From the IMG/VR virus record IMGVR_UViG_2713896908_000007: a stretch of DNA of 64,000 nt. One strand, 5' to 3'. The position numbers and the translations under genes are program-made. This DNA comes from a virus (lineage: Duplodnaviria; Heunggongvirae; Uroviricota; Caudoviricetes). The notes beneath the pieces were generated by a model. The model was not told where the DNA came from and made no database searches. It worked only from the letters and a program-made list of their open reading frames with translations. Shown piece after piece: positions 25,717 to 60,717 of this stretch. Numbering within the stretch: the stretch's first letter is position 1; every line of letters begins with the position of its first letter.

Positions 25717-25733
25717 AAATTAATTAGAGCAAT
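25717..25733 (-). promoter_or_regulatory. C1 operator (AAATTAATTAGAGCAAT)
   Basis: 16/17 match to ATTGCTCTAATAAATTT in reverse orientation, 20 bp upstream of ssb start. Confidence 0.6.
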
Positions 25734-55195: not shown

Positions 55196-58100
55196 ATGAC
55201 TCATCAAACACACACCATTGCTGAATCCAATAACTTTATCGTTCTTGATAAATACATCAAAGCTGAGCAAACAGGCGACAGCTATCAGAGCGAATCGGAC
55301 CTGGAACGTGAACTGATTCAGGACCTGCAAAATCAGGGCTATGAATTTATATCCGTAAAATCACAGTCAGCGATGCTGGCCAACGTTCGGGAACAGCTTC
55401 AGAGCCTCAATGGTGTGATGTTTAATGACAGAGAGTGGCGGCGTTTCACGGAGCAGTATCTGGACAACCCGAGCGATGGCATTCTGGATAAGACCCGTAA
55501 AATCCATATCGACTATATTTGCGACTTTATTTTTGATGACGAGCGACTTGAGAACATCTATTTGATAGATAAAAAGAATCTCATGCGCAATAAGGTGCAG
55601 ATTATCCAGCAGTTTGAACAGACGGGTTCTCATGCTAACCGTTATGACGTCACGATCCTGGTTAATGGTTTACCGCTGGTGCAAATCGAACTAAAAAAAC
55701 GCGGGGTGGCGATTCGTGAGGCTTTCAACCAGATACATCGTTACAGTAAAGAGAGTTTTAACAGCGAAAATTCCCTGTTTAAGTATCTGCAACTGTTTGT
55801 CATTTCTAACGGCACCGATACCCGTTACTTTGCCAACACCACAAAGCGCGATAAAAACAGTTTTGACTTCACAATGAACTGGGCGAAATCAGACAACACG
55901 CTGATTAAAGACCTCAAAGACTTTACCGCTACCTTTTTCCAGAAACATACTCTGCTGAATGTTCTGGTGAACTACAGCGTTTTTGACAGTAGTCAGACGC
56001 TACTGGTGATGCGACCGTACCAGATTGCAGCTACCGAACGAATTTTATGGAAAATCAACAGTTCCTATAAAGCGAAAAACTGGTCCACTCCCGAAAGTGG
56101 TGGCTTTATCTGGCACACCACCGGTTCCGGTAAAACACTGACCAGCTTTAAAGCCGCGCGTCTGGCAACAGAACTGGACTTTATTGATAAAGTCTTCTTC
56201 GTGGTCGACAGAAAAGACCTCGATTACCAGACGATGAAGGAATATCAGCGTTTTTCGCCAGACAGCGTCAACGGCTCGGAAAATACCGCAGGACTTAAAC
56301 GAAATCTGGATAAGGACGATAACAAAATTATCGTCACCACTATTCAGAAACTCAATAACCTGATGAAAGCAGAAAGCGACCTGCCTGTATACAATCAGCA
56401 AGTGGTGTTTATATTTGATGAATGTCACCGCAGCCAGTTTGGAGAAGCACAGAAAAACCTGAAGAAGAAATTCAAACGCTATTATCAGTTTGGTTTTACC
56501 GGCACACCTATTTTCCCGGAAAACGCCTTAGGCTCAGAAACAACCGCCAGCGTATTTGGCCGTGAATTGCATTCATATGTTATTACCGATGCGATTCGTG
56601 ACGAAAAAGTGCTCAAATTCAAGGTGGACTACAACGATGTGCGGCCACAGTTTAAGTCTTTAGAGACAGAAACTGACGAGAAAAAACTGAGTGCGGCTGA
56701 AAATCAGCAGGCGTTTCTTCATCCCATGCGTATTCAGGAAATCACGCAATATATCCTGAACAACTTCCGCCAGAAAACCCACCGTACTTTCCCTGGTTCC
56801 AAAGGTTTTAATGCCATGCTGGCAGTAAGCAGCGTGGATGCTGCAAAAGCCTATTATGCGACGTTTAAACGGTTACAAGAGGAAGCCGCTAATAAATCTG
56901 CAACTTATAAACCGCTGCGTGTTGCGACAATCTTCTCCTTTGCCGCTAATGAAGAACAAAATGCCATTGGTGAAATTTCCGATGAAACTTTTGATACCAG
57001 CGCAATGGACAGCAGTGCTAAAGAGTTTCTTGACGCTGCAATTCGTGAGTATAACAGCTATTTTAAAACTAACTTCAGCACCGACGGTAACGGTTTTCAG
57101 AACTACTATCGTGATTTAGCCCAACGGGTTAAAAATCAGGATATCGATCTGTTAATTGTCGTTGGGATGTTTTTAACCGGCTTCGACGCTCCAACATTGA
57201 ACACGCTATTCGTCGATAAAAACTTGCGTTTTCACGGCCTGATGCAGGCATTTTCCCGCACCAACCGTATTTATGATGCAACTAAAACCTTCGGTAATAT
57301 CGTCACTTTCCGCGATCTGGAACGCTCAACCATCGATGCCATAACGCTGTTTGGTGACAAAAACACCAAAAATGTAGTGTTAGAAAAGAGTTATGCAGAG
57401 TATATGGAAGGCTTTACTGATGCTGCTACTGGTGAAGCTAAGCGCGGCTTTATGGCAGTAGTTGCAGAACTGGAACAACGGTTCCCTGACCCTGCCAGTA
57501 TTGAAAGTGAAAAAGAGAAGAAAGACTTCGTTAAACTGTTTGGTGAATACCTGCGTACCGAGAACATCCTGCAAAACTATGATGAATTTGCCACGCTGAA
57601 AGCCCTGCAACAAATCGATCTTAGCGATCCTGTTGCAGTAGAAAAATTCAAAGCAGAACATTATGTGGATGATGAAAAGCTCGCTGAATTGCAAACAATT
57701 CGTCTCCCTGCTGATCGCAAGATTCAGGATTATCGTTCTGCCTATAACGATATTCGCGACTGGCAGCGCCGTGAGAAAGAAGCTGAGAAAAAAGAGAAAT
57801 CAACCATTGACTGGGATGACGTAGTTTTTGAGGTCGATTTGCTGAAGTCTCAGGAAATAAACCTGGATTATATCCTTGGACTGATTTTCGAACACAACAG
57901 ACAAAATAAAGGCAAGGGCGAAATGATCGAAGAGGTCAAACGCTTAATTCGTTCAAGCCTAGGGAACCGTGCTAAAGAGGGCTTGGTGGTCGATTTTATT
58001 CAGCAAACGAACCTGGATGATTTACCAGATAAAGCCAGTATCATTGAGGCATTCTTTACGTTTGCTCAACGCGAACAGCAACGTGAAGCAGAAGCATTGA

Positions 58101-58312
58101 TAAAAGAAGAAAATCTCAATGAAGAAGCAGCAAAACGCTATATTCGCACGTCTTTAAAACGCGAATACGCCACCGAAAATGGCACAGAATTAAACGAAAC
58201 ATTACCAAAACTTAGTCCGTTGAATCCGCAATATAAAACGAAAAAACAGGCAGTTTTCCAGAAAATCGTCTCGTTTATTGAGAAGTTTAAAGGCGTAGGC
58301 GGAAAAATATAG
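55196..58312 (+). CDS. hsdR: type I restriction endonuclease subunit HsdR
   Basis: 1038 aa; Walker [17 protein letters not shown]-like FDECHRSQ, C-terminal helicase motifs. Confidence 0.95.
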
Positions 58313-58328
58313 CCCAATTCGTGTTTTT

Positions 58329-58356
58329 CTTGCGGGTTCTTAATTAAACCCGCAAG
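58329..58356. other. perfect 10-bp stem-loop after hsdR
   Basis: cttgcgggtt-cttaatta-aacccgcaag; no U-tract. Confidence 0.5.
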
Positions 58357-58391
58357 AGCTCGTGGGGTTCCAAATGGCTAATATACTCCCA

Positions 58392-58478
58392 TTACCCATG
58401 CGCGACGATGCCGCCAAAAGTGATAGAGAACAGCCAGAAATAGATCGCGGCCATAATGATTTTGAATGCCGTGTTCAT
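58392..58478 (-). CDS. candidate 28-aa hydrophobic peptide (MNTAFKIIMAAIYFWLFSITFGGIVAHG)
   Basis: ATG preceded by AGGAG; antisense between hsdR and the following terminator; below the ORF-track size cut-off. Confidence 0.3.
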   Translation of the reverse strand: MNTAFKIIMAAIYFWLFSITFGGIVAHG

Positions 58479-58506
58479 ATCCTCAGCTCCTGTGATTGAT
58501 TGGATA

Positions 58507-58537
58507 CATGCCGCGCCTTGCGGCATGTTTTTATTTT
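58507..58537 (+). terminator. rho-independent terminator downstream of the hsd operon
   Basis: catgccgc-gcctt-gcggcatg followed by tttttatttt. Confidence 0.6.
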
Positions 58538-58559
58538 CACCATCTCTGTTTAAAAATCA

Positions 58560-58576
58560 AGTTTTATTAGAGCAAT
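58560..58576 (-). promoter_or_regulatory. C1 operator (agTTTTATTAGAGCAAT)
   Basis: 15/17 to consensus; overlaps the stop of the adjacent phosphatase-like gene and faces the hsd insertion. Confidence 0.5.
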
Positions 58577-59082
58577 TATTGTTGATAAAGAAGCGCATTT
58601 TCATACTCCCTGACCATTAACGTAAGTACGCCGTGACTCCTGAAAACACGCGCCACTTCAATCTTATCTTCCAGCGCGAACGCAATTTTACTTAGACCAA
58701 TTTTCTTCAGGAGATCAATCTTTGCTGGACCGTCATTTCTGTCATCGGTGGCAGGACGCATAGATAGCAAAGGCTCAGCCCCGTTTGTTACGTGCTTCCG
58801 CAGCCAGGCTCGTGTTTTATCCCTTGCGATCTCACAGCGCCCGGTTACAAACCAGACCGTGTAAACGTTAAATAACTGGCGCACCATATCAATAACTGGA
58901 GTTATGGGAGTATCGGTGTCACAGGCGAGATTAAACTCGTTCCAGTCCTTTGTTAATGCACCTTTACCTGGTGGCGGAAGCAAATGCAGTCTGTCTTCAG
59001 TTGCCTCTGATATTGTTCCATCAATATCAACTATGACGATATACGGACGTTCATGGTGTGCGTGTTGGTTGAAAATACTCAA
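58576..59082 (-). CDS. HAD-superfamily phosphatase-like protein
   Basis: 168-aa ORF; HAD motif I IVIVDIDGT. Confidence 0.55.
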   Translation of the reverse strand: MSIFNQHAHHERPYIVIVDIDGTISEATEDRLHLLPPPGKGALTKDWNEFNLACDTDTPITPVIDMVRQLFNVYTVWFVTGRCEIARDKTRAWLRKHVTNGAEPLLSMRPATDDRNDGPAKIDLLKKIGLSKIAFALEDKIEVARVFRSHGVLTLMVREYENALLYQQ

Positions 59083-60651: not shown

Positions 60652-60717
60652 ATTGCTCTAATAAAAAACGTGATGAGTGTACATCACGTTTTAAAAATAT
60701 GGAATTATTAGAGCAAT
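60652..60717. promoter_or_regulatory. bipartite C1 operator (two inverted sites flanking a palindrome)
   Basis: ATTGCTCTAATAAAAAA (60652-60668) and reverse ggaATTATTAGAGCAAT (60701-60717) flank the palindrome aacgtgatg-agtgta-catcacgtt; upstream of the 420-aa gene. Confidence 0.55.

Follow-up and report, generated by a model that had tools for sequence, protein, structure and literature searches.

The 64,000-nucleotide (nt) stretch of DNA analyzed here (IMG/VR record IMGVR_UViG_2713896908_000007, hereafter the window) is a P1-like phage-plasmid, and a small open reading frame (ORF) of 28 codons plus stop (MNTAFKIIMAAIYFWLFSITFGGIVAHG, positions 58392–58478) lies on its minus strand between the genes pap and hsdR. 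We propose that this small ORF is probably a genuine gene of the P1 phage-plasmid backbone, predicted to encode a single-pass inner-membrane protein that would be made early and be repressed by C1. Our comparisons strongly support purifying selection on the reading frame, as judged from its substitution pattern. Equally well supported are the placement of the small ORF as first cistron of an early unit repressed by C1 at Op88 and transcribed from the promoter PpmgT, and the conservation of operator, promoter, hairpin, leader, and Shine-Dalgarno (SD) sequence across lineages.

The pap-hsdR spacer is homologous to the P1 pap-pmgT intergenic region (window 58388–58575 corresponds to P1 84294–84482 in AF234172, with 95–96% identity). 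An Escherichia albertii plasmid matches it at 100% identity, and identities among full-length matches range from 93 to 97%; the matches fall on ∼900 plasmids of E. coli, Salmonella, and Klebsiella, and P1, P7, SJ46, and RCS47 match as well. In this spacer AF234172 marks the operator OpmgT (formerly Op88) and the predicted promoters P1pmgT and P2pmgT, and the record itself notes 96% identity between the spacer and the sequence downstream of the EcoDXXI hsd locus. A coding sequence for the small ORF is missing from the P1 and P7 reference annotations of the pap-pmgT spacer. The TAA codon of the small ORF is found 9 nt ahead of the pmgT ATG in P1, and the small ORF is thus the first reading frame of the C1-controlled unit.

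The Small ORF and Its Start Codon

The reading frame extends from an ATG at 58478 to a TAA stop codon at 58394–58392, and an AGGAG ribosome-binding site is located at 58491–58487, 8 nt upstream of the ATG. Both features had been described in an earlier reading of this DNA made from its letters alone (the sequence-only reading), and both are present. The 28-amino acid (aa) peptide has a grand average of hydropathy of 1.30, scores 2.1 in its best 19-aa Kyte-Doolittle window, and is predicted to form a single transmembrane (TM) helix. When both strands of the window were inspected for ORFs of 15–60 aa that start with ATG behind a strong SD-like motif, five were found, one of which, the 28-aa ORF alone, contains a hydrophobic stretch of transmembrane grade. 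The small ORF thus exceeds chance expectation.

An alternative, 44-aa version of the frame would start from an ATG at 58526, inside a hairpin. This form (window 58392–58526, minus strand; L001, 6143–6277; L004, 1505–1639) is annotated in RefSeq (WP_257187432.1) and in the SJ46 record, where SJ46 names it a “membrane protein” and other database records call it “hypothetical.” We rejected the upstream start: it has no SD sequence, it falls in the hairpin with which the transcript is predicted to begin, and the upstream frame is closed in the distantly related Cronobacter phage JK004. We take the start behind AGGAG to be the correct one, as it is conserved in the relatives and the 44-aa form has no counterpart in JK004; the 44-aa annotation is probably an over-extended start call. 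The sequence-only reading let the 5′ region of the ORF overlap a hairpin, which holds only for the start of the 44-aa version; for the 28-aa ORF, the hairpin belongs to the leader, 28 nt upstream. JK004 gene_94, for its part, is annotated too short, with 38 aa from an internal ATG.

Conservation of the Reading Frame

We collected 111 P1-type loci with two different anchors and found the small ORF intact in all except one (110/111). Nine synonymous and 11 nonsynonymous events are seen in these loci (pN/pS 0.34; binomial p = 0.018 against Nei-Gojobori site fractions). Common variants are all synonymous (GCG>GCA in 45/110 loci), and amino acid variants are all rare. A second sample, chosen via the neighboring Pap protein and unbiased with respect to the spacer, contains the intact ORF in 64 of 66 loci. 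Scanning genome contigs with Pap returned just two near-identical loci, scans of viral contigs with the JK004 Pap returned P1-type loci only, and the relatives obtained in a word-indexed protein search with the 44-aa form all show at least 92% identity, with variable C termini.

More distant relatives are decisive. One of them is JK004, whose Pap shares 74% sequence identity and which has the same layout: behind C1 operator, hairpin, and CCAATCAATCACCGGAGC, an ATG starts a 53-aa ORF with the same N-terminal pattern as the 28-aa peptide. Protein searches yielded seven forms of 53 aa and a single one of 48 aa, most of them on 30–94-kb contigs, and all relatives share the gene order pmgQ-pmgR-pmgS-(pap)-operator-hairpin-leader-ORF-next gene. 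In the locus of the 48-aa form (L207, 2835–3000), pap is missing and the operator-promoter-hairpin-leader-ORF block directly follows pmgS; the block is therefore independent of pap. Four residues (Met-1, Lys-6, Ala-11, and Trp-15; M1, K6, A11, and W15) are invariant across the 28-, 48-, and 53-aa forms, and a family profile recovers the P1-type peptides with E values of 1e-7 to 1e-4 among 1.84 billion representatives and of ∼1e-8 to 1e-5 in a 5.8-billion set. The search for homologous small ORFs that the sequence-only reading had proposed thus returned 48- and 53-aa homologues, and the frame is conserved in them. At the nucleotide level, the only plasmid sequence that blastn recovered with the JK004 region is P1-type DNA (∼72% identity). 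A leader pattern specific for JK004 was discarded, as its one match was a chance occurrence inside a structural gene (L094).

The seven 53-aa genes have a median dN/dS of 0.29 (21 pairs), the ORF frame alone is free of stop codons in all seven, and each stop codon overlaps the next ATG. When codons 1–25 of the P1-type ORF are compared with the 48-aa form of L207, 12.5 synonymous differences at 15.7 sites face 11.5 nonsynonymous differences at 59.3 sites (pN/pS 0.24), and the differences are distributed 7/3/14 over codon positions 1/2/3 (Fisher p ∼1e-5 to 1e-4). In the 53-aa clade, the next gene, which shares an ATGA overlap with the small ORF, codes for a 104-aa winged-helix protein (L093, 3733–4047; L201, 3159–3473) that matches MarR_2 with 28.5 bits (just over the cut-off) and PHROG 142, “Ren-like exclusion protein,” with E = 1e-5. 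The genes after this Ren-like gene are typical early accessory genes in the relatives. The P1-type peptide is a TM-only version of the 48–53-aa forms, and the relatives are translationally coupled to the next gene.

The main rival explanation for this difference in length is that the 28 codons are what remains of an ancestral gene of ∼50 aa, namely its N-terminal TM part. The peptide would then be functionless, its frame would survive only because it lies in the conserved promoter/leader block next to a recombination hot spot, and translation would at most serve coupling or anti-polarity by holding ribosomes on the leader. The hydrophilic tail, where the 53-aa relatives are under the tightest constraint, is absent, in line with such a remnant, a coupling role would fit the overlap of the relatives' stop codon with the next ATG, and the zero nonsense mutations among ∼20 events in P1-type DNA are not significant, the diversity being too low. 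However, between the P1-type and L207 TM codons, synonymous sites are saturated and nonsynonymous change is low, and the pN/pS ratio over these codons is not expected if the frame only had to stay open. The frequencies of the P1-type variants, all rare when nonsynonymous and as common as 45/110 when synonymous, also speak against a functionless peptide. We consider a relic unlikely, yet deserving of serious attention, and return to it below with the recombination junctions.

Operator, Promoter, and Leader

The C1 operator (ATTGCTCTAATAAAACT, 58560–58576, minus strand) overlaps the end of pap. It is the homologue of P1 Op88/OpmgT, with which it aligns in AF234172, and read from 58576 to 58560 it has two mismatches to the consensus ATTGCTCTAATAAATTT. 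The window contains 12 C1-operator-like 17-mers (at 25717, 30861, 40827, 42388, 42472, 42936, 45604, 50244, 58560, 60652, 60701, and 63418), compared with 0.26 expected by chance; the sites at 60652 and 60701 probably represent the Op86a/b pair ahead of pmgR. The operator is kept in all distant relatives. Its last base forms part of the −35 hexamer of a sigma-70-type promoter (58533–58560, minus strand), which we located by mapping the P1 annotation onto the window by alignment and which is the equivalent of the predicted P1pmgT. The promoter is composed of a −35 hexamer TTGATT (58560–58555), a 16-bp spacer (16 nt in the window versus 17 nt in P1), and a −10 hexamer GAAAAT (58538–58533), and it scores 8/12 in a promoter scan. 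In most relatives a −35 hexamer TTGxTT is readable, followed at a similar distance by an A/T-rich −10 region. From this arrangement, transcription would start near 58526.

A hairpin (CATGCCGC-AAGGC-GCGGCATG, 58506–58528, on both strands) was located by terminator scan and folding (z = −4.9 for the plus strand). On the plus strand it is followed by the T-run TTTTTATTTTC at 58529–58538, giving 58506–58538 the make-up of an intrinsic terminator in that direction, with a G+C-rich hairpin and a U-tract directly after it. In a scan of 58100–58800 this is the sole terminator-like site, and it is the first one downstream of hsdR. The plus-strand site that the sequence-only reading took for a terminator is thus present, but its assignment to hsdR is not supported: the hairpin is ancestral P1 leader sequence. 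It is found in every lineage, a few nt after the −10-like hexamer, and its sequence differs between lineages. The arms are CATGCCGC/GCGGCATG in P1, GGCCGC/GCGGCC in JK004 and L204, AGCCGC/GCGGCT in L206, GGCAGTCAC/GTGACTGCC in L200, GGCGGTCGC/GTGACCGCC in L201, GGGCAC/GTGCCC in L203, and AAGGCCAC/GTGGCCTT in L207. Several of the stem differences are compensatory double changes, and four of five single-sided changes retain a G-U pair on the sense strand and give A-C on the antisense strand. The plus-strand T-run after the hairpin is confined to P1-type DNA, where it complements the A-rich −10/start region. Given the position of the hairpin relative to the predicted promoters, its conserved role is probably that of a 5′-terminal stem-loop of the sense mRNA; termination of hsdR by the leader hairpin would be an add-on in the hsd arrangement.

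Between hairpin and start codon lies an unstructured, conserved leader, CCAATCAATCAC, which is followed by the SD sequence AGGAG (58487–58503, minus strand). A leader core, CCAATCAC(A/C)GGAGC, is kept from P1-type DNA to most relatives, and its flanks diverge; L206 and L207 carry substitutions immediately ahead of GGAGC. Leader and SD sequence are unpaired or weakly paired in our folds, and the SD sequence is accessible in all lineages. In the P1-type pap-to-pmgT alignment, the leader and codons 1–15 (∼58434–58505) are the least variable stretch, with less variation than the coding 3′ end of pap and almost no synonymous variation; chance, a recent sweep or exchange, or an additional constraint at the nucleotide level are possible reasons.

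It could be argued that only an RNA or DNA element is maintained here, be it leader hairpin/terminator, operator, or recombination boundary, and that the ORF is incidental. Hairpin, operator, and leader are clearly under selection, and synonymous sites in P1-type codons 1–15 are as conserved as the others. Between lineages, however, third positions diverge freely while amino acid pattern and frame are kept, the opposite of what a constraint on RNA or DNA predicts. We therefore regard an incidental ORF as very unlikely.

The hsdMSR Cassette and the Border of Variable Region 8

Upstream of the small ORF and on the same strand, pap (58576–59082, minus strand) encodes a HAD-type 3′-phosphatase. 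On the other side, hsdR (55196–58312, plus strand; type IC, EcoR124 family, as taken from the ORF list and the RefSeq annotation of near-identical plasmids) is convergent with the small ORF and is the last gene of an hsdMSR cassette. This inverted type IC cassette, situated between phd/doc and pap, replaces pmgT..humD in the window, leaving the small ORF as the only cistron of its unit. The same replacement is seen in about a quarter of the related elements: after the stop codon of the small ORF, pmgT follows in ∼59 loci, hsd in 22, and something else in a few. Because the cassette replaced the genes that originally followed the small ORF, the convergence with hsdR is secondary, rather than the typical locus layout that the sequence-only reading saw in it.

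The stem-loop that had been noted directly after hsdR exists as described. Its 10–11-bp stem (58328–58357, both strands) is formed by arms at 58328–58338 and 58347–58357, with folding energies of −20 to −21 kcal/mol and z scores of −3.8 (plus strand) and −5.1 (minus strand). A T-run precedes it on the plus strand and an A-run follows on the minus strand; we rejected it as a terminator, there being no U-tract after it on either strand. It may stabilize 3′ ends or serve as a site for a protein or for recombination in the hsd cassette, to which it belongs and whose hsdR it accompanies into IncF plasmids. Those IncF plasmids that have the same hsdR (R124-type, e.g. pM629-2-NDM5) carry window 58313–58471 (L089, 3001–3159), that is, the stem-loop and all but the first two codons of the small ORF, truncated by the IS1 end GGTGATGCTGCCAACTTACTGAT. 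The presence of this P1-backbone fragment after hsdR suggests that the IncF hsd cassette derived from a P1-like plasmid. Similarity to R124/3 and EcoDXXI is already noted in the P1 record.

The interval occupied by pmgT..humD or hsd has been described as “variable region 8” of P1-like phage-plasmids (PMC9603915), and the end of the small ORF is its left border. Many recombination and insertion junctions map at or within the last few codons of the ORF (window 58392–58395 and the equivalent sites in L0xx loci), and beyond …AHG the sequence is lineage-specific, with pmgT, hsd, a DUF551 fusion, an IS1 end, and others.

This border also bears on whether the small ORF is a relic. The frame ends exactly where the variable region begins (PMC9603915) and ahead of sequence that depends on the lineage, as a leftover might, and several natural variants with a replaced C terminus as well as the passive retention of a promoterless, start-less fragment beside hsdR in the IncF plasmids agree with that view. 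Yet most recombination junctions are located at or after the stop codon and not inside the frame, which favors a gene over a remnant.

Possible Antisense Transcription of the Small ORF

The sequence-only reading had likened the convergent arrangement to a type I toxin-antitoxin locus. The small ORF would then encode a membrane-damaging toxin, and a plus-strand RNA covering its SD sequence and start codon and ending at 58506–58538 would block translation; this RNA could be a dedicated small RNA or, in the window plasmid, the 3′ untranslated region (UTR) of hsdR. The peptide is indeed small (28 aa, thus below 60), hydrophobic, and endowed with one TM helix. A canonical plus-strand terminator is present just upstream of the SD sequence in P1-type DNA, even in P1, which has no plus-strand gene there; hsdR read-through in the window must cover the small ORF in antisense; and the P1-type alignment varies least from the leader through codon 15.

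Several results speak against this scheme. The best candidate for the antisense RNA promoter, which had been suggested as a check, scores 8/12 with a spacer of 15 or 19 bp and has no extended −10 element, and its CATAAT hexamer and the antisense T-run are missing from the 48- and 53-aa lineages. The single-sided stem changes mostly keep sense G-U pairs and break antisense pairing. The SD sequence is not occluded, and the leader, only ∼48 nt in length, is unpaired or weakly paired outside its terminal hairpin. Moreover, the small ORF is the first cistron of a C1-repressed operon and not a self-contained module. Toxin models, including those of Hok, Ldr, Ibs, and TisB, gave no match, and neither did the Sok, Sib, or Rdl RNA families. 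Pfam, NCBIfam, and PADLOC scans of the 28- and 44-aa forms returned no match, PHROGs only phrog_27041 with E = 0.16, and the plus-strand matches in Rfam are all below threshold and at chance level (GcvB, 15.8 bits against a gathering score of 42). A type I toxin-antitoxin system is thus not supported by our analysis, and we judge it highly improbable, though P1-type elements may still have a dedicated antisense RNA.

A further scenario, a long shot in our estimation, is limited to the hsd-carrying plasmids. There the TM-only peptide would act on the membrane, as a factor for host takeover or as a toxic one, and the convergence would by now work as an antisense pair. In the lysogen, leaky expression of the peptide would be silenced by transcripts that read through from hsdR and end at the terminator of the leader hairpin. 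Upon induction, the PpmgT transcript would meet no terminator, as the stem-loop at 58328–57 has no U-tract, and would run antisense into hsdR, lowering restriction during lytic growth. If true, this would link prophage induction to the control of type I restriction-modification.

A Putative Early Membrane Protein and Its Relation to Known Systems

Having considered these alternatives, we favor a genuine small membrane protein gene, an option that the sequence-only reading had also raised and that fits a hydrophobic-peptide frame conserved in distant relatives. A number of observations weigh against it. The selection signal within P1-type DNA is modest, and its p value of 0.018 would lose strength if transition bias were taken into account. 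The predicted promoters behind the inferred start site score just 8/12. The family is very narrow, with nine representatives at E ≤ 1e-3 among 1.84 billion, one of which (P0035) is repetitive and looks unrelated. Without the tail, where conservation among the 53-aa relatives is highest (tail dN/dS ∼0.06–0.3), the P1-type form could be a decaying remnant; replaced or disrupted 3′ ends occur in P0009–P0014, P0017, P0019, P0020, P0029, P0030, and P0032. CRISPR interference data list the downstream P1 genes pmgT–V as non-essential, from which it follows that the unit is dispensable for plaque formation. Finally, no family, structure, or paper covered by our family scans and literature search gives the small ORF a function: no Pfam, PHROG, or NCBIfam model matched the family, and our literature searches, among them ones for the exact peptide sequence and for expression data, found nothing on it.

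If the small ORF is a gene, its expression can be pictured as follows. In a lysogen, C1 bound at 58560–58576 would hold the promoter shut, and upon infection or induction the promoter would fire at ∼58526. The mRNA would open with a stable 5′ stem-loop, probably protecting the transcript, which would be followed by the unpaired CCAATCAATCAC-AGGAG leader and by translation of the 28-aa peptide from the ATG at 58478. The peptide would insert through its one TM helix, placing K6 on the cytoplasmic side, and would target a membrane component of host or phage, binding or perturbing it early in lytic growth. In the window, hsdR transcripts would cross the small ORF in antisense before reaching the terminator-like plus-strand side of the hairpin.

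P1 is among the most used and best annotated phages, and its reference records are without the first frame of the Op88-controlled early operon. Adding the small ORF would correct the annotation of P1 and of hundreds of P1-like resistance plasmids, some of which carry the over-extended 44-aa call. The small ORF offers a compact test case for early phage micro-proteins at the membrane, and the conserved operator-promoter-5′-hairpin-leader block marks the expression platform that borders the cargo hot spot “variable region 8.” In practical terms the weight of the finding is modest, with pmgT–V listed as dispensable for plaque formation and the family confined to P1-like elements. The small ORF is a new, minor addition to the phage small membrane proteins and not a toxin-antitoxin discovery.

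The closest known system is the Op88/OpmgT-PpmgT region of P1 itself, which shares with the window the locus, the C1 operator, the predicted promoters, and the ORF sequence; P1 keeps pmgT..humD, whereas the window has the inverted type IC hsdMSR cassette in their place. The 48–53-aa proteins (JK004 gene_94 region, P0021–P0027, and P0034) have in common with the P1-type peptide the synteny, a C1-type operator, the start hairpin, the leader core, the SD spacing, and an N-terminal TM helix with M1, K6, A11, and W15. They differ by a conserved hydrophilic tail of ∼25 aa (SFKPDANMRASRHLGNLSASYDCDQQ; another tail in L207) and by a stop codon that overlaps the start of the winged-helix Ren-like gene, whereas the P1-type peptide ends three residues after the TM helix and no gene follows in the window.

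Enterobacterial type I toxins (Hok, TisB, IbsC, LdrD, ShoB, DinQ, and ZorO) resemble the peptide in size (<60 aa) and in their single hydrophobic helix, and the small ORF of the window plasmid is likewise overlapped by a convergent transcript. Their sequences are unrelated, the small ORF is C1-repressed and part of an operon, and a dedicated antisense RNA gene, an occluded SD sequence, and a long structured 5′ UTR were not found at the small ORF. AcrZ, MgrB, MgtS, KdpF, and CydX are single-helix E. coli inner-membrane regulators of 20–50 aa that bind larger membrane proteins. By analogy, binding to a larger membrane protein would be the likeliest mode of action for the 28-aa peptide, which has no homology to these regulators and differs from them in being phage-encoded and repressor-controlled. 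At the RNA level, 5′-terminal stem-loops of the ompA 5′ UTR type stabilize mRNA. The arrangement described here is similar, with a stable hairpin within a few nt of the predicted 5′ end and an unpaired ribosome-binding region after it, but the P1-type hairpin doubles as a plus-strand terminator-like site.

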